From Escherichia phage LHE287, in the sequence record PP761450.1: DNA of 64,000 nt, one strand, 5' to 3'. Shown piece after piece: positions 234-63,194 of this stretch. The notes under the pieces were generated by a model, which worked only from the letters and a program-made list of their open reading frames with translations, was not told the DNA's origin and made no database searches. How positions within the stretch are numbered: the stretch's first letter is position 1; each line of letters opens with the position of its first letter. A program made the position numbers and the translations under genes.

Positions 234-1337
234 TTAAGCGAATTTGAGGCCATCGGATACCGAACCAGTCAGTACACCCATCAGATAATCAGGAGCTTCC
301 GCTTCCTGCAACGCGTACTGCATTGCCTTATTATCTAGCCAGTCATTAATCCATGGGACTGGGTTCTCCTTGCGAGGTTCACCGGGATATGGATGCCCGA
401 TAGCGCCCATCCGGTGGGTTGCCAGCCAGTCTACCATCTGATGAAGGATCTTGGCGTTCAGCCCCAGGATGGAACCGTCTTTGAATAGGTAGTTCGCCCA
501 CTCCTTCTCTTGATGAACTACGTCCAGGAACATCTGGGTCATCTCACCACGCAGTTCCTCACGGATGATTGCAAAGTCGGGGTCCATGCCAGGCAGGCGG
601 TTTAGCAGCGTCTGGGTCAGGATCAGGTGATCCTGCTCATCACGGGCGATCTGTCGAATGATTTTGGCATTGCCTTCCATCTTCTTCTGGAACTGTGTGA
701 ATGCCCAAGAGCATGCAAAGGACACGTAGAAGCGGATGCCTTCCAGTGTGTTGGCAGCAAACAGAGCACGCCAGAATGCGCGTTTGGCATTCATCAGATC
801 TTCTCGGGTGAAGATGCGTCCGGCCATACGCATGCCACTGTACTGTACCATGTCATCGTAGTACACACTGATCTGGTGAGCACAGTCCACGATCTCCACA
901 ACATCCAGTACGTGGTCAAACACGATACCTGGATCGTTCACAGTATTGCGCAAAATGTGGGTGTACGATAAAGAGTGAATGGCTTCCTGGCGCGTCCATT
1001 CAAGGACAGCAAACTGCATTTCAGGGGTAGACGCCCATGGACCAAACGCCTCGAACGGAGCCGCACCCTGGATAGAGTCCAGCATGGTCTGGCGCTTCAG
1101 GTTGCTGAAGTAGACATGTTTCTCTGCTTCGTTCAGGGTAGCAAAGTCGGCCTTGTCCTTGGTGATGTCCACCTCTTCAGGACGCCAGAACTGGCTGAGA
1201 CCTTTCTCATACCACTTCTGTACGAATGGCCAGGCCACGACATCGTAACGCTGGATGCTCACTGGGTCACCGAAGAACGGTAGACCAGTGTTGTCCGAGC
1301 TTGGGTCGAATACGGAGAATTGTTTCTGTTCGCTCAT
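234..1337 (-). CDS. nrdB: ribonucleotide reductase small (beta) subunit
   Basis: 367 aa; ferritin-like diiron RNR motifs (EAIHSLSYTHIL, EGIRFYVSFA); AGGAAA SD; adjacent to nrdA. Confidence 0.9.
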   Translation of the reverse strand: MSEQKQFSVFDPSSDNTGLPFFGDPVSIQRYDVVAWPFVQKWYEKGLSQFWRPEEVDITKDKADFATLNEAEKHVYFSNLKRQTMLDSIQGAAPFEAFGPWASTPEMQFAVLEWTRQEAIHSLSYTHILRNTVNDPGIVFDHVLDVVEIVDCAHQISVYYDDMVQYSGMRMAGRIFTREDLMNAKRAFWRALFAANTLEGIRFYVSFACSWAFTQFQKKMEGNAKIIRQIARDEQDHLILTQTLLNRLPGMDPDFAIIREELRGEMTQMFLDVVHQEKEWANYLFKDGSILGLNAKILHQMVDWLATHRMGAIGHPYPGEPRKENPVPWINDWLDNKAMQYALQEAEAPDYLMGVLTGSVSDGLKFA

Positions 1338-1407
1338 GTTTCTTTCCTGATTAATAAGGGGTGATCTCTCACCCCTGATGATATAACGGTAGTAGGTTTA
1401 GACCAAC

Positions 1408-3690
1408 TCAGACGATACAACTCTCACAATCAGGTTCCTCAGCCTGTTTCAGCTCTTCGTCTTCCTTGGCGTCTTTGTTTGTGTTGTAATACAGAGTCTT
1501 GCCACCCCACATATAGAACGACAGGATATCCTGCATCATCTTGGCGCGAGGGATCTTGCTGTCAGGGTACTTCTCTGGGTCATACCACGTGTTGGTACTG
1601 ATGGACTGGTCAACCCAGCGCTGGATGACAGCAGCGGTCTTCAGGTACTCAATACAGTCCAGGTCCCACTTGAGGTCATACATCGGCCCAAGGGTCTCAA
1701 CTTCCGGGACGACCTGCTTATAAGTGCCGTCCTTGCTACCCTTGATGCTCACCAAGCCCTTCGGTGGCTCAATGCCGTTCGTTGCGTTGAGGACCTGTGA
1801 GGAGCTTTCGGTAGGGGCTACTGCCAGCAGGGTGGCGTTGCGGATACCATAGGTCTTCAGATTATCCTTCAACTCATCCCAATCCAGCCCATATGCCATC
1901 CCTTCTGGCTTCTTGCCATTTGGTAGGATATCAAGTGGAAGCGGCTGAAGGTCGGCGGTGACCTGCCCATTATTGTGGATGGTTCCGCGTTTACACGCCC
2001 CGAACTTCATAGCCAGACGGTTGGACGCCTTGACCAGATAGAAGTGCAGGTGTGCCATCCACGCATCCAGCATTTCAAGACCAGCTGGTGAGCCATAGCC
2101 CGTGAAGTTCTTGGCCAGGAAGTGAGCCACGTTCACGATACCAACACCCAGAGGACGATAGTCTTCAACAGCTTTACGAGCCTGAATCGCTGGATAGTCC
2201 TGATATTCCAACAGCATGTCCAGCGCAGACACCAACACGAACGCCACGTCTTCCATTTCGGTCGGGTCTTCGAATGCTGTCAGGTTGAAGGAAGCCAGGG
2301 TGCACAGAGCCACGCGCCCGTTTTCATCGTTGTACTGCTCAAACTCACGGGTCGGCAGGGCGATTTCTAAACAAAGATTTGAAGAATAAATCGTGTCTAG
2401 GTTGAATGGACTGTATTCATTCATGTGATCGACAAATGCGATGTAGATGCGGCCTGTGTCCGAACGCTGGTCTAACAGCATCTGGAACACCTCTTCTGCC
2501 TGCAACTTCTTAGCACGAACCAAACCGGCATCGGCGGCCTTGATCATGTTCTCATACAGATTACGGAACTTGTCAACGTCAGCGAAGTATGCTTCATACA
2601 TTTCGCGGTTGTCTTTCGGGTCGAACAGATACAGAGGCTGCTTGGCAACAAGGCGCTCAAACATCACGCGGTTGATCTGAATGCCATAGTCGATACGGCG
2701 TTCGCGGTTTTCTTCAGTACCACGGTTGTTCTTCAGAACAACGACGTCATCGAACTGGTAATGCCACAGAGGGATGTACGCTGTTGCTGCACCACCACGA
2801 ATGCCGCCCTGAGAGCAAGATTTGAGTGCCCCAGTGAGATACTTGATGAATGGGATCAGGCCTGTGTGAACCATCTCTCCGCCGCGAATAGGACTACCAA
2901 TCCCACGGATTGCCCCGACATCGAAGCCGATACCCGCACGTTTGGACACATAGTCAACGATGGTCTTGGCTGTTGCGTTGATAGAGTTCAGGGTGTCATC
3001 AGTCTTGATTAACACACAGGAACTGAACTGACGGGTAGGAGTACGAACACCTGCCATAATCGGGGTGGGAAGACTGAACTTGCCTGTGCTGGCATATTCA
3101 TAGAACTTTTTCACCATCTCCAGGCGGCTGTCTTTGTCCCAGTTAGAGAACAACGCCATGGCGATGCCCATGTACATGACCTGAGGGGTTTCGTAGAAGA
3201 TCTTGCTGTCTTTCTTGGAACGGTCGCACAACAGGTACTTCTCAGTCAGCTGACCCATGGCCGCCCACGTGAAGTTCTTATCGCGTTTGTGATTGATGAC
3301 ATCGTTCAGCTCGTTGAACTCTTCGGTCGTGTAGAGATCAAGGAACTCACGATCATACACGCGCTGTTTGATGTTCTTGACGAAGATGTCCAGCAGGTGA
3401 GGCGGCTTGTACTGACCGTAGACAGCCTTGCGCAGATCATACGACTTCAGACGAGCAGCCACATACTGGTAATTGGGTTTGTCTACAGAGATCAGCGAAG
3501 CCGCAGCCTGGATGAGGATATCCTGAATGCGATCTGTTCTCATGTTGTCGGTGAACTGAATCTTAGATGCAGCGATCACCTCTGACATTGACACACCAGA
3601 CAGGCCATCACATGCGCGGTCTACGACTGCGTGTAGTTTCTCAATATCAAATGGGACAGAAGATCCGTCACGTTTTATAACGTTAATCAT
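1408..3690 (-). CDS. nrdA: class Ia ribonucleotide reductase large (alpha) subunit
   Basis: 760 aa; ATP-cone N-terminus (VIKRDGSSVPFD), active-site NxCxE (SNLCLEIALP), C-terminal CESC redox tail. Confidence 0.9.
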   Translation of the reverse strand: MINVIKRDGSSVPFDIEKLHAVVDRACDGLSGVSMSEVIAASKIQFTDNMRTDRIQDILIQAAASLISVDKPNYQYVAARLKSYDLRKAVYGQYKPPHLLDIFVKNIKQRVYDREFLDLYTTEEFNELNDVINHKRDKNFTWAAMGQLTEKYLLCDRSKKDSKIFYETPQVMYMGIAMALFSNWDKDSRLEMVKKFYEYASTGKFSLPTPIMAGVRTPTRQFSSCVLIKTDDTLNSINATAKTIVDYVSKRAGIGFDVGAIRGIGSPIRGGEMVHTGLIPFIKYLTGALKSCSQGGIRGGAATAYIPLWHYQFDDVVVLKNNRGTEENRERRIDYGIQINRVMFERLVAKQPLYLFDPKDNREMYEAYFADVDKFRNLYENMIKAADAGLVRAKKLQAEEVFQMLLDQRSDTGRIYIAFVDHMNEYSPFNLDTIYSSNLCLEIALPTREFEQYNDENGRVALCTLASFNLTAFEDPTEMEDVAFVLVSALDMLLEYQDYPAIQARKAVEDYRPLGVGIVNVAHFLAKNFTGYGSPAGLEMLDAWMAHLHFYLVKASNRLAMKFGACKRGTIHNNGQVTADLQPLPLDILPNGKKPEGMAYGLDWDELKDNLKTYGIRNATLLAVAPTESSSQVLNATNGIEPPKGLVSIKGSKDGTYKQVVPEVETLGPMYDLKWDLDCIEYLKTAAVIQRWVDQSISTNTWYDPEKYPDSKIPRAKMMQDILSFYMWGGKTLYYNTNKDAKEDEELKQAEEPDCESCIV

Positions 3691-3773
3691 GGTGTTCCTC
3701 GGGTTTGTTTACGCAGGTTTTATTATACGCCGCCCTCGTAGATTGAAGGCGGCAGGGAGGGTTGGTGAGTTAC

Positions 3774-4616
3774 TTAAATGTCGTACAGATCGTTGACTTC
3801 CAGCATCAGGCGGGTGAAGTCGCCGCGCCCGTTGCGGTCAGACTTGTCGAACTCGATGATACTGAACGGCTGAACCCATTCAGGGTACTCATCACCGACG
3901 CCAACACCATCGATCTTCAGGGTTCCGGCCTCCAGCTTGGCGTTGAAGTCGCGGAAGGAACTGACGTACTTTTCAAGGGCGCTGTCGCGCAGGCGCTTGT
4001 TGGACTGTTTGATGTCACCGTTGACAAAGATGTAAGTCGAGTCAGATGCGCGGGTCAGTAGGTTCTTCAGCTGCTCCATATCACATTCCTGCGCTTCTTC
4101 AATGATCAGGAAGGTGTCGTCGAAGGTCATCCCCTTGATGGTCTCCAGATCCTGGATCTCAATAATCCGCTTCTCCCACAGATAGTTGAAGAAACCGTCG
4201 CTACCTGTGTCAGTCTTCAGCACCTTCTTCAGCGTCTGAATCAGGGGCATCAGATATGGCATCAGTTTTTCGTATGTGTCGCCAGGGCGGAAGCCTGCAG
4301 TCTGGCCTGTTGGCAGCGGAGAGCGCGTGATGACGATCTTGCTGACCACTTTATCGATCAGGAGCTTGGCGGCGGCTGAGGCACCACAATACGATTTACC
4401 TGTGCCTGCCGGACCGATTGCGATGGTGAGGTTTTCTTCAAGAGCAGATTGATACGCGAGGTTCTGATTTTCTGAGAGGCCATTGAACGGAGCGATTCTG
4501 AAGTCACCTTTAGAGAACTTCATCCAGTCATCTTCTTTCTGGATTGTCTCTTTCTTACGTGCTGACTTGGTCTTGCCCGCTGGCTTCTTACTTACAACTT
4601 TGGTGGCAGATTGCAT
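3774..4616 (-). CDS. phoH: PhoH-like ATPase
   Basis: 280 aa; Walker A AIGPAGTGKSY; GGAAGG SD. Confidence 0.8.
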   Translation of the reverse strand: MQSATKVVSKKPAGKTKSARKKETIQKEDDWMKFSKGDFRIAPFNGLSENQNLAYQSALEENLTIAIGPAGTGKSYCGASAAAKLLIDKVVSKIVITRSPLPTGQTAGFRPGDTYEKLMPYLMPLIQTLKKVLKTDTGSDGFFNYLWEKRIIEIQDLETIKGMTFDDTFLIIEEAQECDMEQLKNLLTRASDSTYIFVNGDIKQSNKRLRDSALEKYVSSFRDFNAKLEAGTLKIDGVGVGDEYPEWVQPFSIIEFDKSDRNGRGDFTRLMLEVNDLYDI

Positions 4617-8686: not shown

Positions 8687-11600
8687 TCAGATCTTAATCT
8701 GCATGTTGCCACCCAGGGACTGCTCGTACTCGCTGTATGCGCCTTCCCCGTAGTCTCGTGCCCACTGGTCAGACTGCTGGGCGCTATCCAGAGTCATCAG
8801 GTTTGGTTCAGTCGGGTTGTAACCCTTGGACTTCGCATCCCGGTACAGAGTCTGCAGGTACTGGTTGGCGCGGTCAATCTGAGCTTTGAACTCGCGATAT
8901 GCCCCTTCAGTTGTGTTGCGGCGGAAGGTGATATCCCAGTCCACGTTCAGAGTCTGACCATCACGGCTTACATAGATCTGCCAATCCAGGTCGCGACCTT
9001 TTGGTGCGTTGTCGCGGATGGAGTCGGCGTATGCCGCAAGGTCGTCCTTCGGATTGTGCGACGTGCTTTTCAGAAGTAGTGCATGACCCATACCACCGTT
9101 TGGCTGAAGAGACCATTTTCCTGTTTCTCTTCCCAGGCGTTCTATGTTGTTGAGTTGGTTTATCGACAATTCAGAAGAGTCAAATAATACCACATCACGT
9201 TTTTTGGGGGTTCTCACATAATGGGTGAGATCAATGTCGATCATCCGGTTTATAAATTCTACCACTTCAGCTTGTTTCTTTGGCAATGTGGTATTGATAT
9301 CCGGCTTGTTTGCCACTTTCTCTAGGCGTTTGTTTTCTGCGCTTATCATGGACAGCATAATTTGTGTAACTTTGCCGTCAGACAAGTTGTAATCATTCCA
9401 AATCACTTCACCTTTATCCGTGATGGTTATATCGTTCAAGAACACCTGGTTTGGGTTGTATGACTGACTTTTCAACTGTTGGAGGTTTCTGGAAAGATAT
9501 TCCATTCTTGATGATATTTCATCAATCATACTCTGGACCACATCTTTGTTCAAAGTAAGTTCATATGTCTTCGGATTGTTCAGGGTACGCCCTTTCTGAG
9601 AGACAATTGGGGTGAATGCAACTTTACCTTTGTCGTAGTAATAGGTCACGTTGGTTATCATAGAAGTACCGGCGTATTTTCCCGTTTCGGGGAAATTGAC
9701 ATCCCACCGAATGGACATACCGTTGACAGTCTCACCAAACACCATGGCGTTGCGCGGTATCTTCAAATTATCCAAAACGGATTGTTCCCCAGAATCAGTG
9801 TTCGGTGGGGTGATATTTTTCTGTTTCCACCAGGCAGTCGCCGCCTTCGTAAACTCTTTAGCCACACCAGACGGAATCGGTGGGAGTTTCAAGGTTTTGG
9901 CCAGGACACCCAAGTCTGAGCCGGACACTTCTGCAAAGGATCTTAATTTTGAGGAAGCACCGTAATACACACCATATACTGGAGTGCCAGAACTTGGTAT
10001 CACATTGATACCACCACCATACATACCTGATTTCTCACGGAACTCCAATACTGGTTGTCCATCAGGTGCCGTTTTGTTATACCAACCAACGACGACGTTC
10101 TCCAAGTTCTTTTCAACGTAGTCCGTTGCTGTTTGAACAAAATCATCAATAATCTTGGGGAATCGTTTTGGATCGCTGATGTCAACATTTTCTAACACAC
10201 CCACAGATGGCGGGAATGCTACCCATTTTTCTGCTGTTGCGTTCCAGGCATTAACAGACATCTGGACTGATTGATTACGTCGCGCAATTGACAGAGTCAG
10301 TTTGTAACGGTCTTTCACAAAGTTCTTGATGTATTCATCATCACCAAATAATTTGCCGCCAGCTGCCTTACTGTAGCCAATGTAATTCAGTAAATTGAGC
10401 CACTTGGATTTGGTAAGTTCACCGCTGTTGTCATTGCCGGTGTCATTGCTGGTGTCAACGTCCACCACCAGAATTATTTGAGAACCTTTCTTGAAAGTGT
10501 ACTGATCGTACATGCCTTTCTTCTGTTTGGTCATGGACGCACCGACCAAGTCTTGGTTGGTGAAGCCGCGCTTCATATTCCAAGATACCTCAGTCCCGTC
10601 TGGATATTTGTCAAAATTATAACCATAGAATACGGCTACTTCTTTCGAACCGCTTATCAGGCGGACGTAGTTTCCACGAATCGGGTCGCGCCCGCTCTTC
10701 AACTCCAGACCAGTGTCCGAGCTGTTGTACCACTCGCGGTTGACTTCGATTTCAGAAGAACCAGCCCCGGTTCCCACACCCCGAGCACCAATAGTGGTGT
10801 TGGAGTCAGCTGGCGCGGACTTCTGCTGAGAACCTTTCCAAAATTTTGTGGACGCCATGGTGAAATCATTCAGGATACTGATAGGGACTTGCGGTAATTT
10901 CAACTGACGAGCAATGAAATCAGCACTTTGCCCACGCACAGGTTTCTCATTCATGTATGCGCCAACATACACGCCCGGCTCATTGTAGTGGGGAGCGATA
11001 TTTGCCGTGTTCATGCGGCCTCTCTCCTTACCAGCCCATAACAACATGGGCTGATCCCCGTTTGAAGTTAATTTCCATCCGTTGGAATTATCAACAGAAG
11101 ATGAAGAACCAGCCCCGGTTCCCAAGTTTGTTTTTCTGGAATCTTCTACGTTTAGATTGAACAATTGTTTCCCAGATGAGTCGGAAGCAATAAATTCATA
11201 TTTCTTGCCACTGCGGGTACTCGTGCTGTTAACTTTGATGTTTCCAGTGTATCTTCCTGGATTCGTTTTTTGCATGAAATTGGTAATTGCAGCAGAAGGG
11301 GTTTTCATCCCAGAAATGATCCTAGCTGTCTCGGGATCAGTGAAAGACACTACGAGTTTGCGCCCATCCATCACTGTGATATCATTTCCAGACACCGAAA
11401 TATCCAAGTCTTCCATTTCAGAACGGAAATCAACACCAACAACAATGGTTTGACCAGTTCCACCCACAACGCCATCAACGCTGTTCTGAACCGGAACGTC
11501 ACCGACCTTGTCTGGATCATCCCAGGTGATACCCTGCATCTTCGGACCGTCAAATACCTGAGCCGGATCTTTACCCTTGCGCACAAGCCACACATAACCA

Positions 11601-12061
11601 CGGTCAGGGACAGGCGCGTAGGTCAGGTCCATGACATTCAGTTTCTGTTTCAGGCCGGACTGGCGGATGATCTTAGGAATCAGGGTCATACCGCGATCCA
11701 GCGCTTTCTTAGAGAAGTTGACAGCAAAGCCATCGATGGTCTTGCCCAGAGGAGTCGCCATGAATTGTTTGGTCGCTTCGATCATGGAAGCGATAACGCG
11801 CATTGGGTTCTTGAAGCGAGCGATGGCGTCAGGATAGACGGAGCCGCGCTTCTGGCCGATGAAAACCTGACGAACGCTCTTACCCAGCCCCTGAGGAGTA
11901 TAGAACTGAATGCGGTATTCCTTATCATCTTCGTCGACGAAGGTAAAGAACACATCGCCTGCGTTCTTCTTACCCATGGTCAGCTCATACGGAGCGGAGT
12001 TGAACGCTTCGTCTAACTGATCTCTTTCCTGCATGAACTGGAGGAAACTTAGCTTTGACAT
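8687..12061 (-). CDS. large repeat-containing protein, possibly a fibre/adhesin-type virion protein
   Basis: 1124 aa, G/S/T/N-rich; internal duplication (...LKLPQVPISILNDFTMASTKFWKG... vs ...LKLPPIPSGVAKEFTKAATAWWKQ...; two GTGAGSS segments); CAGGAG SD; function is inference. Confidence 0.6.
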   Translation of the reverse strand: MSKLSFLQFMQERDQLDEAFNSAPYELTMGKKNAGDVFFTFVDEDDKEYRIQFYTPQGLGKSVRQVFIGQKRGSVYPDAIARFKNPMRVIASMIEATKQFMATPLGKTIDGFAVNFSKKALDRGMTLIPKIIRQSGLKQKLNVMDLTYAPVPDRGYVWLVRKGKDPAQVFDGPKMQGITWDDPDKVGDVPVQNSVDGVVGGTGQTIVVGVDFRSEMEDLDISVSGNDITVMDGRKLVVSFTDPETARIISGMKTPSAAITNFMQKTNPGRYTGNIKVNSTSTRSGKKYEFIASDSSGKQLFNLNVEDSRKTNLGTGAGSSSSVDNSNGWKLTSNGDQPMLLWAGKERGRMNTANIAPHYNEPGVYVGAYMNEKPVRGQSADFIARQLKLPQVPISILNDFTMASTKFWKGSQQKSAPADSNTTIGARGVGTGAGSSEIEVNREWYNSSDTGLELKSGRDPIRGNYVRLISGSKEVAVFYGYNFDKYPDGTEVSWNMKRGFTNQDLVGASMTKQKKGMYDQYTFKKGSQIILVVDVDTSNDTGNDNSGELTKSKWLNLLNYIGYSKAAGGKLFGDDEYIKNFVKDRYKLTLSIARRNQSVQMSVNAWNATAEKWVAFPPSVGVLENVDISDPKRFPKIIDDFVQTATDYVEKNLENVVVGWYNKTAPDGQPVLEFREKSGMYGGGINVIPSSGTPVYGVYYGASSKLRSFAEVSGSDLGVLAKTLKLPPIPSGVAKEFTKAATAWWKQKNITPPNTDSGEQSVLDNLKIPRNAMVFGETVNGMSIRWDVNFPETGKYAGTSMITNVTYYYDKGKVAFTPIVSQKGRTLNNPKTYELTLNKDVVQSMIDEISSRMEYLSRNLQQLKSQSYNPNQVFLNDITITDKGEVIWNDYNLSDGKVTQIMLSMISAENKRLEKVANKPDINTTLPKKQAEVVEFINRMIDIDLTHYVRTPKKRDVVLFDSSELSINQLNNIERLGRETGKWSLQPNGGMGHALLLKSTSHNPKDDLAAYADSIRDNAPKGRDLDWQIYVSRDGQTLNVDWDITFRRNTTEGAYREFKAQIDRANQYLQTLYRDAKSKGYNPTEPNLMTLDSAQQSDQWARDYGEGAYSEYEQSLGGNMQIKI

Positions 12062-34418: not shown

Positions 34419-36437
34419 TTAGAACACAACTTTCACAGTGCGGTTGAACGAACCGCTCACCTTCACGAACACGTGGTTGCGTTGGGTGGTAGAGAAGCCC
34501 AGACCGGACAGCTGCTCAGTGCTTGGCTGTACTTTAATCTTACCACCTAACATTTCAAAAACCTTGCGGTGTTTATCAAGTTCCGGCTTCAGATATTCGT
34601 TATAGAAACCACGGGTGCCGACAGGGTTAGCACAACCTTCCAGGATGAAGAACACGTGCTTGTTGCCAGTCTGCTCGCCGTCCCAATGGTTTGGTGAGTT
34701 CAGAACCAGCTGTACCTTCTGGAAGACGGAGGTCTTGATGCCCCAGATTTCCTGAGAGCGAGCGTCGTCTTTCAGGGTAGAACTGATGTCAACCACCTGA
34801 CCAGCGCGAACCTGAACCACAACAGCCAACGTGCGATCTTTGTTACCCAGGCCAGGGTGTGAGAAGCGCTTAGTCTGACCTTTGTATTCAACTTCGATTT
34901 CGAAACCAACGTCACAGGTTTCACGCTTGTTGAAGTTGGTGACATAGAACTCATAATTCCCGTCACGCAACTTGCGTTCATCGCTAAAGAAGATGTTCTC
35001 CACCGGACGGCGGTTTGGATCAATGCCGTCCATACCGTTCATGTCGATGTCCAGAGTTGCGCCAGTTGTCGAACGACGGTTGCGAAAATATACGTGGTTG
35101 TGAAGAGGATCGTTCATGCTCAGATCCAGGTCGTCGTTGTTATGCCAAGCCAGTGACACGCGGAGGAAGCTGTCGACATTGCCGCCTGCGGTCTTCACGC
35201 GCTCTTTGATGGAGTCGGCCACTTCGCCATTGTACGACCAGCTGAAGCCGTTGTTCCACTTGAACAGGTTAGGAGCGCCTGCGGTAGCCGGAGCGATCAG
35301 GGACATCAGGTTGCCAATGTGAGAGTTTTCGACCAGCACTTCCAGGGAATGCGCCTTTGGCAACACGTTGGTCAGGAAGTCGTCGATCGTGATCTCTTCA
35401 ACCTTGTCCAGGGACTTGGTCGGAGTCTTCACTTCAGACGCCAGCTGAGCAAACGGGTCCATCTTCTTCTGAGCTGCCAGATCGGCGAACAGAACGTTGT
35501 TGATGGTCAGATCGTCATACACGGCATAACGGCGACCCAGTGAATCGGTCAGACCCAGCGCTTCGACTTCTTTCTGCGCGTTTTCAATCATCGACTTCGT
35601 GACCAGCGCGGTTGGGCGCTTGTAGTTCGTCGGAGCGACTTTGGCTTCAAAGGACTTCACGGCGGTTTCCAGATCCCGGCCTTCATTGAGGTCTACCAGC
35701 AGAGAGCCAATCACGGTATTACGAATGCCGTGAGGGGTATGACCGTTTGCACGGTAGCCAGTGCGCCAAGCCCACAGAGCGCGTTTCTCTTCTGCAGTTT
35801 GTTCGTACAGGGTCTTGTTCACCACGAACGCCTGCACTGCCGCTTTGTGCTCTTCACCGCGATACAGAGAATTCTGGTCAATCAATTCCAGAACGATTTC
35901 AGCCGATTCCAGAGACAGTTCACGCAGGCCGCGCTCAAACACTTCAATCGCCTGGCGGATTTCACCCTTCTTAGAAGCGATGGTATCTGCCCGCAGAACA
36001 TAGCTGCCCAGCAGGTCGGTGTGGAAGTGGTTGTAGGTACGGACAATACCATCTTTCATTTCGTGATTCGACTCAACACCAACTTTCTTGGTGTCGTTGA
36101 AGTACACGTCGACGATTGCGTGCTGCTTAACATATGCTGACAGCGCCGCAGCGACAACGTCGTATTCGTTACCCAGCTGAATGTTATCCCAGATAGAGAT
36201 CACGTTCAGATCGGAGTCGATGGTGACTACACCGCCGATGTTACGGATGAATTGTTTGCAGCAGGTGCAGTCGTGCTCGGTACGCTCACGATAAAGCGGG
36301 TTAGTGCCAGCAGGGAAAGAAGACAGATACAGATCCCACAGAGCATCTTTATCGATGTTGGTCATGAACAGACCAGTTGCTGACATGGCCAGCACGTTAT
36401 TGTTGACAGCTACTGCGAAGGGCTTAAAATCTGACAT
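34419..36437 (-). CDS. large hypothetical protein (672 aa)
   Basis: no P-loop or polymerase motif; CTCC and His-rich segments; function unknown. Confidence 0.6.
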   Translation of the reverse strand: MSDFKPFAVAVNNNVLAMSATGLFMTNIDKDALWDLYLSSFPAGTNPLYRERTEHDCTCCKQFIRNIGGVVTIDSDLNVISIWDNIQLGNEYDVVAAALSAYVKQHAIVDVYFNDTKKVGVESNHEMKDGIVRTYNHFHTDLLGSYVLRADTIASKKGEIRQAIEVFERGLRELSLESAEIVLELIDQNSLYRGEEHKAAVQAFVVNKTLYEQTAEEKRALWAWRTGYRANGHTPHGIRNTVIGSLLVDLNEGRDLETAVKSFEAKVAPTNYKRPTALVTKSMIENAQKEVEALGLTDSLGRRYAVYDDLTINNVLFADLAAQKKMDPFAQLASEVKTPTKSLDKVEEITIDDFLTNVLPKAHSLEVLVENSHIGNLMSLIAPATAGAPNLFKWNNGFSWSYNGEVADSIKERVKTAGGNVDSFLRVSLAWHNNDDLDLSMNDPLHNHVYFRNRRSTTGATLDIDMNGMDGIDPNRRPVENIFFSDERKLRDGNYEFYVTNFNKRETCDVGFEIEVEYKGQTKRFSHPGLGNKDRTLAVVVQVRAGQVVDISSTLKDDARSQEIWGIKTSVFQKVQLVLNSPNHWDGEQTGNKHVFFILEGCANPVGTRGFYNEYLKPELDKHRKVFEMLGGKIKVQPSTEQLSGLGFSTTQRNHVFVKVSGSFNRTVKVVF

Positions 36438-49019: not shown

Positions 49020-50492
49020 TTAGTTCAAGACATATTTGATCAGTCCACAATTCCAAATCCTGACCAGCCCGGCTTCGGTTGCTAACTGGCTTTCTGTTTT
49101 GCCTTCTACGTCATACCCCATGCGAGCAAATGAACCTTTTCTGAAACCGAATTTGTGCTCACGCATAAATGTGCCAGGCTTGTGGTATTTGTAGTCTGGC
49201 TTCTGTACTTCCTCTTCTACGAATCCGTGGGATAGGTAAATGTTGGACAACCTGCTTACAACACACCTATCCCCAAAGGAATAGATTTTGGTGTCGGTAA
49301 ATTTTCTTCTGAAGTGTGAAAGAAGTTTACTGAATGCCCCGTGGCAATCATTAGAGGCAAATCTGACTAATTCCAGGCCATCTTTCCTTTTAGTGAATAG
49401 CATCACGGCTTGTATGACCCCACTCTTGTCAATTAACGACAAATGGTGGGTGGAAGAAACGGAACCTTGTATGTGGTGGTTGTCTAAAAACTCCCTCAAG
49501 CCGCTTATATTCCCCCAAACGACTTTGTGTTGGCGAGCATATGACGCGGGTGTTTTAATGCCAAGTTTAGCTTTCAGAAGAGATTTGACCACTTCCTGTT
49601 TCTCAACCCATTCATCTTCCCAGATGTGGATCAACTGGATACCCTGAGTTTCACATATTTCAGTCTTTTCCAGGTGATAATGTTTCTCTTTAAAAACTTC
49701 TGAATGCCAGTACAGGCCATTAAATTCGATCGCCAATTTGTGTTCAGGGCAATAGATATCCAGTTGTTTACCGGATAATATACTGTAATCAGAAACAGTG
49801 TTTACAACTCCCATTGAGGTGAGAAACTCGGATATTTCCTTTTCATAAGAAGATTTCTTGTTCCTGATAGAACCATTGCTGAACAACGCACGTTTTAGTA
49901 TGTTCGAGTTTTTCATAGGGTTGTCAACACCATAACGTTCTTGTAACGTTGCCAACGCCTTCTCCCTCACACCAGGTAATTGTAGTGTGGAGCAGCTTCC
50001 GTATTTGGATATATTCGAATTCTCTATGGCTTTCCGACCAATCCCACCTTTACACATAGAAACCTGATAACATTCTTCAGAACAATATGTTCTGTAATCT
50101 TTATTATTGATATAAAAGTTGGTTTCCTTGGAACACACCGGGCATATTTTCACGGTTCTATTGTACAGCCAAGCTGTGACTTTACAAGCCAAATCTTGTA
50201 GGGTGTTGTGGGTATTGGCGAACACTAAAAGGTCTACATTGATGTGCTTCATAAGCAGTTCAGATTTGCATTTTTGGATATCCAATTTGTTGTTCTTGGT
50301 AAACATATATTTGTAGAAAAATTGGCGATATGATTCCTCGTCAGACAATTCATTCACTGCTTCAAGGAAACCTTCCGGGAGGTTCTTTAGGGTGTTCGAT
50401 GCGAAGGTCTTGCAAGCATCTGAACAAAATTTCTTATCTTTCCTGGATGCTTTGAACTGTTCATGGCAGACACTACAGATTACCTGATACAT
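49020..50492 (-). CDS. nuclease-like protein with N-terminal zinc ribbons; candidate free-standing homing endonuclease
   Basis: ATG 50492 with GGAGGA SD; CxxC pairs (CSVCHEQ, CSDAC, CPVCSKE, CSEEC); IEFNGLYWHSE block; AT-rich codon usage versus neighbours. Confidence 0.55.
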   Translation of the reverse strand: MYQVICSVCHEQFKASRKDKKFCSDACKTFASNTLKNLPEGFLEAVNELSDEESYRQFFYKYMFTKNNKLDIQKCKSELLMKHINVDLLVFANTHNTLQDLACKVTAWLYNRTVKICPVCSKETNFYINNKDYRTYCSEECYQVSMCKGGIGRKAIENSNISKYGSCSTLQLPGVREKALATLQERYGVDNPMKNSNILKRALFSNGSIRNKKSSYEKEISEFLTSMGVVNTVSDYSILSGKQLDIYCPEHKLAIEFNGLYWHSEVFKEKHYHLEKTEICETQGIQLIHIWEDEWVEKQEVVKSLLKAKLGIKTPASYARQHKVVWGNISGLREFLDNHHIQGSVSSTHHLSLIDKSGVIQAVMLFTKRKDGLELVRFASNDCHGAFSKLLSHFRRKFTDTKIYSFGDRCVVSRLSNIYLSHGFVEEEVQKPDYKYHKPGTFMREHKFGFRKGSFARMGYDVEGKTESQLATEAGLVRIWNCGLIKYVLN

Positions 50493-50540
50493 AATTATTC
50501 TCCTCCATATGGTATCTAGTATAACCTGTTCGATAATATG

Positions 50541-50568
50541 AACAAATAAAAACCCCGCCGAAGCGGGG
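50541..50568 (-). terminator. strong rho-independent terminator after major capsid gene
   Basis: CCCCGC-CGAA-GCGGGG then TTTTTATTTGTT on minus strand. Confidence 0.8.
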
Positions 50569-50596
50569 TTTGTCAGGGTTAAGGACAACTATTCGA

Positions 50597-59603: not shown

Positions 59604-61814
59604 TCACCGTCTCAGCCATTCTTCCATAGACACACCAGAGCGTTCATCATAAACCTGAATTCCACCGAACCCTGGGATGTTCTCCACAGAGTGAGGATCT
59701 GGTGTCGACATCATACCCCCAAATGGTAGCATCTGAGATTCTTCCATCGCAGACAACCGTCCTCTCATGTCCACAGAGATATTTGAATTGGTGAGATCAC
59801 TAAACCATTCTTGTTTCACCGCCCATGCATACAACACGAGGGGCATTACACAGTCATCATGACAACCATCATCGGCTTCATACCTTGTTCCAGTCCATAC
59901 GAATGTACTGAGTTCATCTATCGTGTCCTGGTCATCTATCACCAGCATTTCACGTTCAATCAGGGCTTTCAGGTTGGCACAGCCGTTTGTGCGCACCTTC
60001 TTGTTGGTATTGATACCAGGCTCAGGGCGGCGACCACCGATTCTCTTGCCTGTACCCTTGGTATCTGTTGTAGTGAAGATGATCTCGGGATATTCAATTT
60101 CCTGGTATAGAATTGTGATTACCTGACCACCCACGTCGTTGTTGGTCTCGACTAGCATCGGGCACGTTCCATACTTCTCACCCATATCGGCGATTGTGTA
60201 CGCGTACATCATTGGAGGTATCGTGTTATTTCGATACTTGGCTGCGATCTTGTGAGGATAGTCTGTGATGTCGATAATGGTCAGCACAGAATAATCCCCT
60301 TCGACACCCTTGCCTGTATCTGCGATACCCATATAGATGCGCTTAGGATCGTAGTCGTGATAAATCTTGGTGAACTCGTTCGGCTCCTGATACAGCTTCG
60401 AGGTCATCTTGTCCAGACACTTGGCAGGTATCAGTGATCCCACAGAACCACGGAACTTAATGCCAAATTCTTGATCGAAACGTGCATCACCCAGCTTCGC
60501 CCTTTGTTTGGATTCCCAGTCTGGATCTTTGGTGTACGTTGGAACACGATACCATGGGACCTCTGTGAGTTTGAAGTCGTTGTATTGTGGATGTTCTGGG
60601 TTCGCCTTGGTGACGATGTCGTAGAACAACCCGCGCTGACCTTTCGGCGTACTGGTCAGAATACAACGTGAAGTCTCTGCAGATGCAATCGCCGGGAATG
60701 TAGACTCCCAGAATTCAAAGTCGTTTTCAATGAACGCCACTTCGTCCACATACAGGAGCGATACAGATCGACCACGGATGGAGTCGGAAGATGTCGCATA
60801 GGCGTAGATCTTTGATCCGTTTTCGAACTCTATCAGCGTGGAACCGAACTTCTCACAACCCTGTTGGAGGAAGAATGGCAAATCTTGATATGCTTTGCGA
60901 ATACGATCTAGGATTTCAATCGCCTGCTTCTCTTTGTTCGCCAGTACTGCGATCTCTTTGTCGGAGTGGAACATCGCATACCAGAGCAGGAACGCTGCCA
61001 CGACAGTCGTGTTGTGGCTGAGGAAGCCGTTGGTGTAGTAGCGCTGATCACTAGATTTCACCTGTAGGTCATACATGTGATGCGTCTCACCAGTCTGCCA
61101 AACCTCACGGATTTCTTCTGGACCTTCTGACGTCATGATGTATGACCCAGCATTCAGGTCTTTGGCAAATATCTCCTTCATTTCCGGAGTGAAGAATATA
61201 TGTTCGTCGGCCACGTTAATTCGCCGCCCAGTAACAGTCACAATAACGAATTCCGCATATTTCTTCGTCTTATGCGCTGCGATAACCGGAACCCAGCCAC
61301 TATCGGATTGCACAAAGTAACGCTTGCCGAAGCGGCTGTCCACGAACTTGTCATGGTTGCCAATGGTATTCAGCGGCACAGCGTGGTTGACGTCCTCGAA
61401 GCGGCTGTGAAGCTCCCCTATGGTCAGGAGCAACTGCTCTTGGCTGAGAGTATCGTAAACTGTGACAAGCGTGTCACCTTTTACACATTTCCCAGACTGA
61501 CGAGCCTGGACGACCGCATTGAATCGATAGTCCTGGAAGTCATGGAACAACTGCTTCTGGTAATCGTGCATGTCAAAGAGGATGAAGCCTTTATCGATGG
61601 TCGTGATCTTGTAGTAGTTGGCGGCGAAGTAATGGGCGTCCATCGCACACTCGACGAACTCCGATTCTTGTTCGTCGGTTAGCATCAACTCCACACGAGG
61701 TGCACGCACAGACGGCTTGCGCATGAACGTTTGGTCCATACGCAGTCTGACGTCTTCTGTCTTAAACCCCGTCTTGAGCGGGGCGTATTCTACATCACGC
61801 TTCTGATACGCCAT
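59604..61814 (-). CDS. gp17: terminase large subunit (T4 gp17-like) interrupted by an in-frame mini-intein
   Basis: YYKITTIDKGFILFDMHDYQ and RQSGK/TTVVAAFLLW match T4 gp17 Walker A SRQLGKTTVVAIFLAH once residues 116-274 (track numbering) are removed; start at ATG 61814 (GGAGAAGGTG SD). Confidence 0.9.
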   Translation of the reverse strand: MAYQKRDVEYAPLKTGFKTEDVRLRMDQTFMRKPSVRAPRVELMLTDEQESEFVECAMDAHYFAANYYKITTIDKGFILFDMHDYQKQLFHDFQDYRFNAVVQARQSGKCVKGDTLVTVYDTLSQEQLLLTIGELHSRFEDVNHAVPLNTIGNHDKFVDSRFGKRYFVQSDSGWVPVIAAHKTKKYAEFVIVTVTGRRINVADEHIFFTPEMKEIFAKDLNAGSYIMTSEGPEEIREVWQTGETHHMYDLQVKSSDQRYYTNGFLSHNTTVVAAFLLWYAMFHSDKEIAVLANKEKQAIEILDRIRKAYQDLPFFLQQGCEKFGSTLIEFENGSKIYAYATSSDSIRGRSVSLLYVDEVAFIENDFEFWESTFPAIASAETSRCILTSTPKGQRGLFYDIVTKANPEHPQYNDFKLTEVPWYRVPTYTKDPDWESKQRAKLGDARFDQEFGIKFRGSVGSLIPAKCLDKMTSKLYQEPNEFTKIYHDYDPKRIYMGIADTGKGVEGDYSVLTIIDITDYPHKIAAKYRNNTIPPMMYAYTIADMGEKYGTCPMLVETNNDVGGQVITILYQEIEYPEIIFTTTDTKGTGKRIGGRRPEPGINTNKKVRTNGCANLKALIEREMLVIDDQDTIDELSTFVWTGTRYEADDGCHDDCVMPLVLYAWAVKQEWFSDLTNSNISVDMRGRLSAMEESQMLPFGGMMSTPDPHSVENIPGFGGIQVYDERSGVSMEEWLRR
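61011..61487 (-). mobile_element. mini-intein (159 aa) within terminase large-subunit P-loop
   Basis: begins CVKGDTLVTV, ends YTNGFLSHN followed by Thr +1; excision restores RQSGKTTVVAAF; length implies no homing-endonuclease domain. Confidence 0.7.
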
Positions 61815-62496
61815 TGTCTTCACCTTCTCCATTCGGCTCTGCCTGAACGTCGATTACATCTTCTTCGGGATCAGGTCCTTTGGACGCAGCTTTCGCTGCA
61901 GCACGTTCTTCAGCACGTTTACGGGCGTCTTCGATGGTCTTCAGTAGATCACGGGAAGACCTGGCCTGTTTACCGACGTTGACCGTGGTTGTGCCATCAG
62001 GGGACGTGGTGACCTCGACGGTTGTTTCGTCTCCAGGAGGTGGCTCTCTGTCGCCCGTGACCGCCTTGATAGTTTTCTGGTTCTCCATCAGGTCTTTGTT
62101 CAGACCGCGCATGAGTTCACCCAACTCTTTGAAGACTGTGAAAGCACGGGGTGCTTCAGTCGTCGTCGCAAGTTTGGCTGCCTGTCCCATCATGAACATC
62201 GTGGCTTCCTGCATGGCATAAGTCGTGTCACGGATGCGTTTGTAGTCGGTGGTGGCATCAGTATCTTCGAAGTCTGGAACCTTAGACTCCTTGGGCTTCA
62301 GCTCTTCTGGGTCCAATGAAGGAGGAAACACCACAGGCTCATACCCCGCAGGCTTTTCACCCAACCATTCGCCTGTATCCGGATCGTAATCTTTTCCGGC
62401 CATAGGCGAGGTCTTCTCCATGACTTCTTGAGCGACCTCATCCCGCGCTTGGATAGCACTGAGGGTGGATAATAGGCGTTCTGACATAGCACTCAT
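61795..62496 (-). CDS. gp16: terminase small subunit (T4 gp16-like)
   Basis: TTDYKRIRDTTYAMQEATMFMMGQAAK...FTVFKELGELMRG resembles T4 gp16; ATG 62496 with GGAG SD. Confidence 0.7.
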   Translation of the reverse strand: MSAMSERLLSTLSAIQARDEVAQEVMEKTSPMAGKDYDPDTGEWLGEKPAGYEPVVFPPSLDPEELKPKESKVPDFEDTDATTDYKRIRDTTYAMQEATMFMMGQAAKLATTTEAPRAFTVFKELGELMRGLNKDLMENQKTIKAVTGDREPPPGDETTVEVTTSPDGTTTVNVGKQARSSRDLLKTIEDARKRAEERAAAKAASKGPDPEEDVIDVQAEPNGEGEDNGVSEA

Positions 62497-62498
62497 AA

Positions 62499-63194
62499 TC
62501 AATCTCCAGGATGATGTACACCGTCTTTATCAACACGGAACCACTCCGGCAGTTCCGTCCACGGTGTTTTCAAATCATTAGACATTTCGATAATTATCTC
62601 TTTGATCCCGTTAGGATCCCCGCCTCCCTCGTTGTCCACCCAATAGTCATACCCGTAGATGAAGCCGCTCAGCTGGAACATGAAGGAGCAGTCGACGTGT
62701 GGTGAATCAGAAGCATCCCCTTCCCAGTTATCGGACATCTGGTGGCTGATCAGTTGGATCTTGATCTTCTGGTCTTGCTGTAGTGTATCGTTGTCCTTGA
62801 TACCACAGTCTAGAGAGGGAGTGAATACCGAATAAACCTGCTCTAGCACCTGTAACATCTCAACCAATTTCTTGGTTCGGATATTGTACTCAAAATCGAT
62901 AATCAGGGGGATTCGCTGCTTCGCCCCTGCTGTTGGTGTCGATTGTCGATTGTGGTACGTCTTCGTCACCTGTTTGTTGATCTCAAACTGACCAAAAGAG
63001 AAGGTCGCAAATGGAAGCATGTTGGACGGCACGTTCCTGTTGAGGTCATTGCGTCTCCCGATGGCCATGTGTAATGGGACTTCCATAAGACCACGCTCTG
63101 TGTTCACCTTCAGATCAGACATAATGGTGGCAAACAGATTGATGTATTTCATCAATGAATCATGGTAGAAGTAATTTTCAAATGGTCTGGCCAT
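62499..63194 (-). CDS. gp15: tail sheath stabiliser/terminator (T4 gp15-like)
   Basis: N-terminus MARPFENYFYHDSLMKYINLFATIMSDLKVNTERGLMEVPL vs T4 gp15 MFGYFYNSSFRRYATLMGDLFSNIQIKRQLESGDKFIRVPI. Confidence 0.75.
   Translation of the reverse strand: MARPFENYFYHDSLMKYINLFATIMSDLKVNTERGLMEVPLHMAIGRRNDLNRNVPSNMLPFATFSFGQFEINKQVTKTYHNRQSTPTAGAKQRIPLIIDFEYNIRTKKLVEMLQVLEQVYSVFTPSLDCGIKDNDTLQQDQKIKIQLISHQMSDNWEGDASDSPHVDCSFMFQLSGFIYGYDYWVDNEGGGDPNGIKEIIIEMSNDLKTPWTELPEWFRVDKDGVHHPGD

Follow-up and report, generated by a model that had tools for sequence, protein, structure and literature searches.

Escherichia phage LHE287 carries a T4 gp17-like terminase large subunit gene whose product is interrupted, within its ATP-binding loop, by a block of 159 amino acids (aa). 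In this study, we analyzed this block and its surroundings in a stretch of 64,000 nucleotides (nt) of the phage genome (PP761450.1), hereafter the window. A preliminary description of this DNA had proposed that the block is a mini-intein splitting the Walker A motif (P-loop) of the terminase, and that protein splicing would be needed to restore the packaging ATPase. Altogether, our results substantiate the intein identity of the block, which is supported by profile matches, a HINT fold, conserved catalytic residues, empty sites in close homologs and purifying selection.

The terminase open reading frame (ORF) lies on the minus strand, as do all the features of this gene described below. As given in the ORF list, it spans positions 59604..61832 and codes for 742 aa from its first ATG. 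T4 gp17 has 610 aa, and the excess of about 130 aa that had been pointed out is therefore true for these lengths. A Pfam scan of the 742-aa product places the Terminase_6N and Terminase_6C domains on both sides of the insert, and the T4 gp17 crystal structures are matched with an E-value of 2.4e-64 (phmmer against PDB). In this comparison, ORF residues 34-115 pair with gp17 residues 85-166, which end in SRQLGK166, and ORF residues 274/275-682 pair with gp17 residues 166/167-564, which start with TTVVA (match line TTVVAIFL). The block of 159 residues (ORF 116-274) falls precisely at the boundary between the Walker A Lys and the Thr that follows it, K166|T167 of T4 gp17.

Translation of the terminase probably starts at the second ATG, at position 61814 (MAYQKRD, 736 aa), and not at the ATG at 61832 of the ORF list. 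The former is the start annotated in the records of the relatives, and the codons between the two ATGs (GGAGAAGGTGA) resemble a Shine-Dalgarno sequence, or ribosome-binding site, of the 61814 ATG. With this start, the insert comprises residues 110-268, and the computed masses are 84.5 kDa for the precursor (736 aa), 66.3 kDa for the spliced terminase and 18.2 kDa for the intein. Starting from 61814, the terminase gene also overlaps the small-terminase ORF (61795..62502) by 20 nt.

The gene can thus be divided into three parts. The N-extein (61488..61814, 109 aa) ends with VVQARQSGK, the first half of the Walker A motif, as judged from the gp17 alignment up to K166, and is nearly invariant among the aligned relatives. 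It is followed by the putative mini-intein (61011..61487; 159 aa, 477 nt, 18.2 kDa), supported by Pfam and NCBIfam profiles, structure prediction and comparison, and the annotation of a homologous element in Salmonella phage Mooltan. The C-extein (59607..61010, 468 aa) corresponds to gp17 residues 167-564 and contains the remaining ATPase domain and the RNase H-like nuclease domain (Terminase_6N/6C). Its first codon (ACG, 61008..61010) codes for Thr+1, which is at once the predicted C-extein nucleophile and the Walker A Thr equivalent to gp17 T167. The coordinates previously assigned to the insert are exact to the base when read from the DNA, with 477 nt coding in frame for 159 aa, and the quoted ends of the block, CVKGDTLVTV and NGFLSHN followed by Thr, were read correctly. 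Excision of the block would rejoin ARQSGK to TTVVAAF and rebuild the gp17 P-loop, in agreement with both the gp17 alignment and the intein-free homologs described below.

Identity of the insert

The intein profile search that had been proposed as a check does detect intein blocks. The excised block matches the Pfam Intein_splicing profile (PF14890) with an E-value of 1.6e-8 and 35.0 bits, and the NCBIfam intein_Nterm profile (TIGR01445) passes its cut-off (25.1 bits vs 24.5). The top sequence matches of the block in PDB are all inteins, namely CatC, PabCDC21-1, VidaL and gp41-1. Moreover, an AlphaFold2 model built from an alignment of 34 family members reached a predicted local distance difference test score (pLDDT) of 94.6 and a predicted template modeling score (pTM) of 0.87, and the predicted structure consists wholly of HINT strands and two short helices. 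When this model was compared with PDB using Foldseek, the best 50 matches were all intein or intein-like (HINT/BIL) structures, with VidaL at the top (E=6e-11). The lowest pLDDT of the model (84) is found in a variable helical loop at intein residues ~30-46 (61350..61400), with helices at residues 23-29 and 36-43. This loop is also the place where relatives are split or bear inserts, as seen in alignments: Vibrio phage VAP7 has a 19-aa insert in it, and some metagenomic family members carry inserts of 270-370 aa.

The residues predicted to catalyze splicing are present and conserved. The N-terminal nucleophile of block A is Cys1 (codon TGT, 61485..61487), which is the sole Cys of the intein. 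Block B reads A93-D94-E95-H96 (GCC GAC GAA CAT, 61200..61211), where His96 is the conserved block B His in the 34-sequence alignment. Block F contributes Asp140 within MYDLQV (61068..61070), and block G consists of His158-Asn159 (61011..61016), the Asn codon AAC being located at 61011-61013. Invariant positions of the family alignment comprise K47, F48, G64, T74, A93, D94, H96, M138, D140, L156, H158 and N159, and the Thr at +1 (T269/T270) is invariant in the terminase alignment. Cys1 and Thr+1 are kept in all seven sampled Ackermannviridae genera that bear the intein, as well as in the contiguous relatives that were aligned.

Relatives were surveyed by tblastn against phages and by a full phmmer scan covering 1.8 billion representatives; a word-indexed protein search with the intein alone returned 2 matches, and the full scan retrieved 707 relatives of the intein at E<=1e-3. 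The terminase gene of LHE287 shares 99.5% identity with that of Escherichia phage YX22 (Ackermannviridae, Aglimvirinae) and 98% with that of phage AV101, which is classed in the literature as an Agtrevirus. An intein at the same site was found in seven sampled groups: Kuttervirus, Agtrevirus, Limestonevirus, Taipeivirus, Miltonvirus, Vapseptimavirus and the clade of LHE287 itself. Empty sites were found as well. Erwinia phage phiEa2809 (Ackermannviridae, Nezavisimistyvirus) codes for a 580-aa terminase that has no insert and reads ARQSGKTTVVAAF, and the same reading was found in the insert-free metagenomic proteins P0015-P0019 (575-581 aa, 74-85% identical), one of which is encoded in a context of gp15, small-terminase, terL and sheath genes. 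These homologs define a precise K|T junction, and no homolog was found in which the block is present as an ordinary loop, the outcome that had been named as a refutation of the intein. For the intein, the ratio of nonsynonymous to synonymous substitutions (dN/dS) amounts to 0.06 in the comparison with PhiSH19 and to 0.21 in that with Ag3; the exteins have values of 0.02-0.03. The intein is evolving faster than the exteins, yet it is under clear purifying selection. A chance resemblance can be dismissed because the profile match is strong (E=1.6e-8), relatives are numerous and the empty site in close homologs is clean.

Several observations weigh against an active intein. The PF14890 score lies slightly under the gathering threshold of 35.8 bits, and the intein_Cterm profile (TIGR01443) gives a weak match at residues 139-159, with 11.9 bits against a cut-off of 15.6. 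In addition, block B reads A-D-E-H, with Ala93 in place of the textbook Thr. The usual block B motif is T-x-x-H, in which the His is the catalytically important residue. Ala93 is unlikely to be a defect because the whole family has it, even the naturally split inteins, which have to be functional. Finally, the searched literature contains no experiment on the LHE287 intein or on any other Ackermannviridae terminase intein.

With regard to the type of intein, no Pfam match to an endonuclease domain (LAGLIDADG/HNH, between blocks B and F) was found in the insert, and its 159 aa leave no room for one, which makes it a mini-intein. A large homing-endonuclease intein was rejected on the same grounds and because the model is entirely HINT. 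A class 3 intein, characterized by a WCT triad, was also rejected, since Cys1 is present, there is no other Cys and the block F position is Asp140. A naturally split intein was discarded for LHE287, as the gene is a single continuous reading frame. Considering these data as a whole, we estimate a probability of roughly 0.93 that the terminase of this Ackermannviridae phage is interrupted, between Lys and Thr of its Walker A motif, by a mini-intein of the class 1 type that lacks an endonuclease domain, with splicing deduced from the sequence.

Allele exchange and split relatives

The comparison of LHE287 with other Ackermannviridae phages revealed a mosaic history of the intein allele. At the nucleotide level, LHE287 is 88.1% and 90.5% identical to Ag3 (Agtrevirus) in the N-extein and the C-extein, respectively, and 78.2% identical in the intein. 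Conversely, identity with PhiSH19 (Kuttervirus) is 92.9% in the intein and 75.5% in the C-extein. Sliding identity and informative sites delimit an approximate gene-conversion patch at ~61101..61530, which includes ~45 nt at the end of the N-extein and goes on for ~385 nt into the intein (~80% of it); over this stretch, identity with the PhiSH19-type allele of Kuttervirus is 93-99%. The ratio of Ag3-type to PhiSH19-type informative sites is 795:99 outside the intein and 24:94 inside (Fisher p=9e-55). Synonymous divergence (dS) from PhiSH19 follows the same pattern, with values of 0.33 for the intein, 1.5 for the N-extein and saturation in the C-extein. Read from the sequences, this pattern indicates a gene-conversion patch, with a Kuttervirus PhiSH19-like stretch of intein in an Ag3-like terminase gene.

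Kuttervirus itself has two intein alleles, of the Mooltan type and the PhiSH19 type, which share ~79% aa identity, and the exteins around them have protein sequences with 99-100% identity. About the same distance separates the three allele types from one another (72-79% aa identity), and consequently the transfer may have gone either way between Kuttervirus and the YX22/AV101 clade. On this sequence evidence, intein alleles are exchanged among Ackermannviridae lineages although the intein has no endonuclease. The patch starts ~45 nt upstream of the intein and ends ~90 nt before the intein end. Because these breakpoints do not coincide with the ends of the intein, ordinary homologous recombination within the nearly invariant flanks is favored over precise homing.

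A linked free-standing homing endonuclease was also considered as a cause of the swapping of alleles and discarded, since the ORF list shows none between the small and large terminase genes of the window. In Dickeya phage Ds25CZ (MN813053, Limestonevirus), an extra ORF of 879 nt annotated as hypothetical protein (809..1687) is located between these two genes; it is absent from LHE287 and from the other genera, and it may code for a free-standing homing endonuclease beside the intein-bearing gene.

Many relatives of the LHE287 intein are naturally split at about residue 45, according to the retrieved sequences. The majority of the 150 best phmmer relatives begin at intein residue ~46, which corresponds to residue 2-20 of their own protein. 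The C pieces that were inspected start with M...RKF(V/I)..., continue through ...SHN|(T/S) and run into the terminase C-extein; split relatives include PhiW-14, P0123, P0124, P0132 and P0133. Delftia phage PhiW-14 (GQ357915) provides a clear example, as its terminase is encoded by two ORFs, 1925..2392 and 2441..4198, which are 48 nt apart. The split falls inside the homologous intein at the same K|T site and yields an N piece of ~43 aa and a C piece of ~120 aa. The first ORF ends with ARQMGK|CVQGDTEIKL and ~33 further residues, and the second starts with MDKPSRKFVGS and goes through SHN|TTTVAAFLLW. Only the second ORF is annotated as gp17 in the GenBank record, and the searched literature does not mention the intein split of PhiW-14. 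The unusual early split point was first noted in a gp17-like terminase by Dassa et al. in 2009 (PMC2677866), and it has been exploited in AceL-TerL, GOS-TerL and Cat.

Other members of the family occupy different positions. Campylobacter phage CP20 (MK408758, 78..2273) bears a related intein of ~34% identity, whose insertion point in the same Walker A loop is shifted upstream by three codons (MQPRQ|CIEANT...VLSHN|SSKSTTT, with Ser+1). Homologous inteins hence occupy two neighbouring sites of one P-loop. In another family member, P0138, the insertion site is again a P-loop, GVGK|C...SHN|T, and the host protein was taken for a DnaB/gp41-type helicase by eye only. The metagenomic gp17-like terminases P0050, P0086, P0125 and P0123 contain two inteins each, one in the P-loop and a second one elsewhere. 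In P0050 and P0123 the second intein lies near Walker B (RG(K/Q)S|C...SHN|C(A/L)LYLDE), in P0125 it has a similar position (LYLDE|C...SHN|CAFIG), and in P0086 it is found at the motif QE(M/Y)E|C...HN|C(T/E)F. In P0052, P0056 and P0059 (Vibrio phage VP-1), the P-loop intein is kept, and past the QE(Y/F)x motif the sequence becomes a GIY-YIG endonuclease (PF01541). Judging from these terminase ORFs, terL is probably interrupted at this second site by a homing-endonuclease gene.

As for the rest of the window, no further inteins were found in Pfam scans of ten other large ORFs, and tRNA and Rfam scans of the whole 64,000 nt found nothing. The other genes are typical of Ackermannviridae and T4-like phages, coding for a ribonucleotide reductase large subunit, an SMC-type ATPase, a UvsW-like helicase, NAPRTase, portal, sheath and terminase. 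A 522-aa ORF within the structural-gene region (49020..50588, minus strand) has only weak, sub-threshold Pfam matches, to the restriction-endonuclease-like domain REase_MTES_1575 (24.9 vs 38.2 bits) and to DUF7487, and possibly encodes a nuclease or a homing-endonuclease-like protein. Two large ORFs on the minus strand, 8687..12061 (1124 aa) and 34419..36437 (672 aa), had no Pfam match at E<=1e-3.

Proposed splicing and alternative readings

The arrangement of the gene suggests a canonical sequence of events. The gene would be translated into an 84.5-kDa precursor with a broken ATP-binding loop. Upon folding of the HINT domain, Cys1 would undergo an N-S acyl shift aided by the block B His96, and Thr+1 would then attack the thioester by trans-esterification, generating a branched intermediate. 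Cyclization of Asn159, aided by His158 and the block F Asp140, would free the 18.2-kDa intein, and a final O-N shift would yield a 66.3-kDa terminase with the restored sequence ARQSGK-TTVVAAF. We infer from the sequence that splicing takes place. The Walker A motif is essential for the ATPase activity of gp17, in which the Walker A Lys and Thr are adjacent; for this reason, the unspliced precursor is presumed to be unable to package DNA. Retention of the intein would follow from the same dependence, since any mutation blocking splicing would inactivate an essential packaging enzyme. In turn, co-infecting Ackermannviridae phages could swap alleles when the nearly invariant extein sequences on either side of the intein recombine homologously.

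The block might instead be a degenerate HINT-derived insertion that does not splice and is tolerated as a permanent extra domain of the P-loop. The searched literature offers no direct evidence of splicing, and the Ala in block B and the marginal Pfam score would both fit such a decayed element, as would its occurrence in seven out of eight sampled Ackermannviridae genera, which might be expected of a domesticated domain. However, we consider this very unlikely, because Cys1, His96, Asp140, His158, Asn159 and Thr+1 are kept in relatives down to ~30% identity, and because a 159-aa domain between the adjacent Walker A Lys and Thr is hard to square with nucleotide binding. Furthermore, the same-site relatives that are split into two genes, such as PhiW-14 and many metagenomic ones, would be viable only if trans-splicing works. 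A HINT domain of another type, with a non-splicing role such as auto-cleavage, is hardly credible. The GenBank record of Dickeya phage RC-2014 does label the gene as a pretoxin HINT domain protein, BIL2 structures appear among the lower Foldseek matches, and there is a weak Pfam match to PT-HINT (E=0.013). Nevertheless, this match is far under its threshold (16.2 vs 27.7 bits) and weaker than the intein match, whereas the C-terminal His-Asn and the +1 nucleophile are both in place. A BIL or pretoxin domain would also have to sit in the most conserved motif of an essential enzyme, at a site with precise empty alleles, and with no toxin module downstream, as the C-terminal part is the remaining terminase.

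A further possibility accepts the intein and adds a regulatory function, in which splicing would be conditional and, as a post-translational timer or checkpoint, would control when packaging begins, with redox changes at Cys1, temperature or assembly with the small terminase or the portal as possible triggers. What speaks for it is circumstantial: the intein is kept under purifying selection in seven of the eight sampled genera in the absence of a homing endonuclease, and regulatory roles have been proposed for P-loop inteins (PMC5050341). If this were true, the exchange of alleles between Ackermannviridae subfamilies would reflect selection on regulation, and not neutral recombination. Yet the lethality of an imprecise loss accounts in full for the retention, and the requirement for splicing accounts for the purifying selection. 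The existence of phiEa2809 and related intein-free metagenomic phages implies that the intein is dispensable in this terminase lineage, and the mycobacteriophage TerL inteins that have been assayed spliced constitutively and fast (PMC5050341). Conditional splicing is an improbable reading, and none of the present results supports it.

Known terminase inteins and significance

The intein call is correct but it is not new, as this terminase mini-intein at the classic P-loop site is already known and annotated in Ackermannviridae phages. The record of Salmonella phage Mooltan names the gene product an intein-containing terminase large subunit precursor, with a mat_peptide labeled intein on the homologous 477 nt, and the terminase of Salmonella phage Maynard is likewise annotated as intein-containing with an intein feature. 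The nr database also holds a 159-aa entry for the intein of Salmonella phages Maynard and Marshall. The genome announcements of Marshall and Maynard in 2013 already stated that, unlike in T4, an intein interrupts the large terminase (PMC3853055, PMC3868846), and the same statement was made in 2019 for Mooltan and Klebsiella phage Magnus (PMC6486243, PMC6763660). The inteins of these four phages and that of LHE287 are the same element, with the same host gene, K|T site and length of 159 aa. The LHE287 intein is 74-76% identical to the Marshall, Mooltan and Taipeivirus alleles and 95-97% identical to the PhiSH19/GG32-type Kuttervirus allele. The LHE287 clade (YX22/AV101-like, Aglimvirinae) differs only at the allele level, in that its Ag3-like gene contains an allele of the PhiSH19 type. 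In most records of this clade, the gene is simply called terminase large subunit or hypothetical protein.

Beyond this family, the closest precedent is found in mycobacteriophages. Kelley et al. (2016) described the Lys|Thr site, occupied by the mycobacteriophage intein TerL1-a, as the classic P-loop insertion (PMC5050341). TerL1-a shares with the LHE287 intein the Walker A position in a phage large terminase and the need for splicing to rebuild the ATPase site, but its host belongs to the Terminase_1 family, whereas that of LHE287 is of the Terminase_6, T4 gp17-like type. In the reporter assay of the same study, the inteins of five other insertion sites, TerL1-b, -c, -e, TerL6-f and Pham3880-g, spliced efficiently, TerL1-a being outside the assayed set (PMC5050341). 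TerL1-b and TerL1-c carry active endonuclease domains, unlike the LHE287 intein. No sequence relationship between the mycobacteriophage inteins and that of LHE287 was seen, in an analysis that included no test aimed at it.

The host of the atypically split metagenomic inteins GOS-TerL (PMC2677866) and AceL-TerL, and of their engineered consensus Cat (PDB 6dsl), is, as in LHE287, a gp17-like myovirus terminase. Among PDB sequences, CatC matches the LHE287 intein best (E=0.007), with a shared ...YDL...YYTNG..SHN pattern, and many relatives of this intein are split at an early point of the GOS-TerL/AceL-TerL/Cat type, giving a short N piece and a C piece of 110-120 aa. In contrast to the split GOS-TerL and AceL-TerL, the LHE287 intein is contiguous and would splice in cis. 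Membership in the AceL-TerL/GOS-TerL/Cat group was rejected, because Cat has Cys-Glu at +1/+2, indicative of another site, and the LHE287 intein is not split; we retain relatedness only. Judging from the Cat junction, these inteins probably occupy another site of the terminase and not K|T, the likely candidate being the QE(Y/F)x|C(E/T)F motif, where P0086 has another intein. VidaL (6vgv), the best Foldseek match (E=6e-11, template modeling scores of 0.76-0.83), and gp41-1 (6qaz, Foldseek E=3.3e-8) are structurally characterized mini-inteins of phage or metagenome origin with the same HINT fold, but they show only ~19% sequence identity to the LHE287 intein, reside in other host proteins and are both naturally split.

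The modest additions of this work are the mosaic of intein alleles and the picture of a family with both cis and split members. The intein remains unmarked in most Ackermannviridae records, including those of the closest relatives of LHE287, which is of practical relevance for annotation. Compact Cys1/Thr+1 mini-inteins that occur at one site in natural cis versions and in atypically split trans versions could also be of interest as tools in protein engineering, although this idea is not new. For the Ackermannviridae, the presence of a Kuttervirus-like intein in an Ag3-like gene means that terL-based trees are distorted by the separate history of the intein. More generally, the LHE287 terminase represents one more case of the well-described preference of inteins for the P-loops of phage ATPases.

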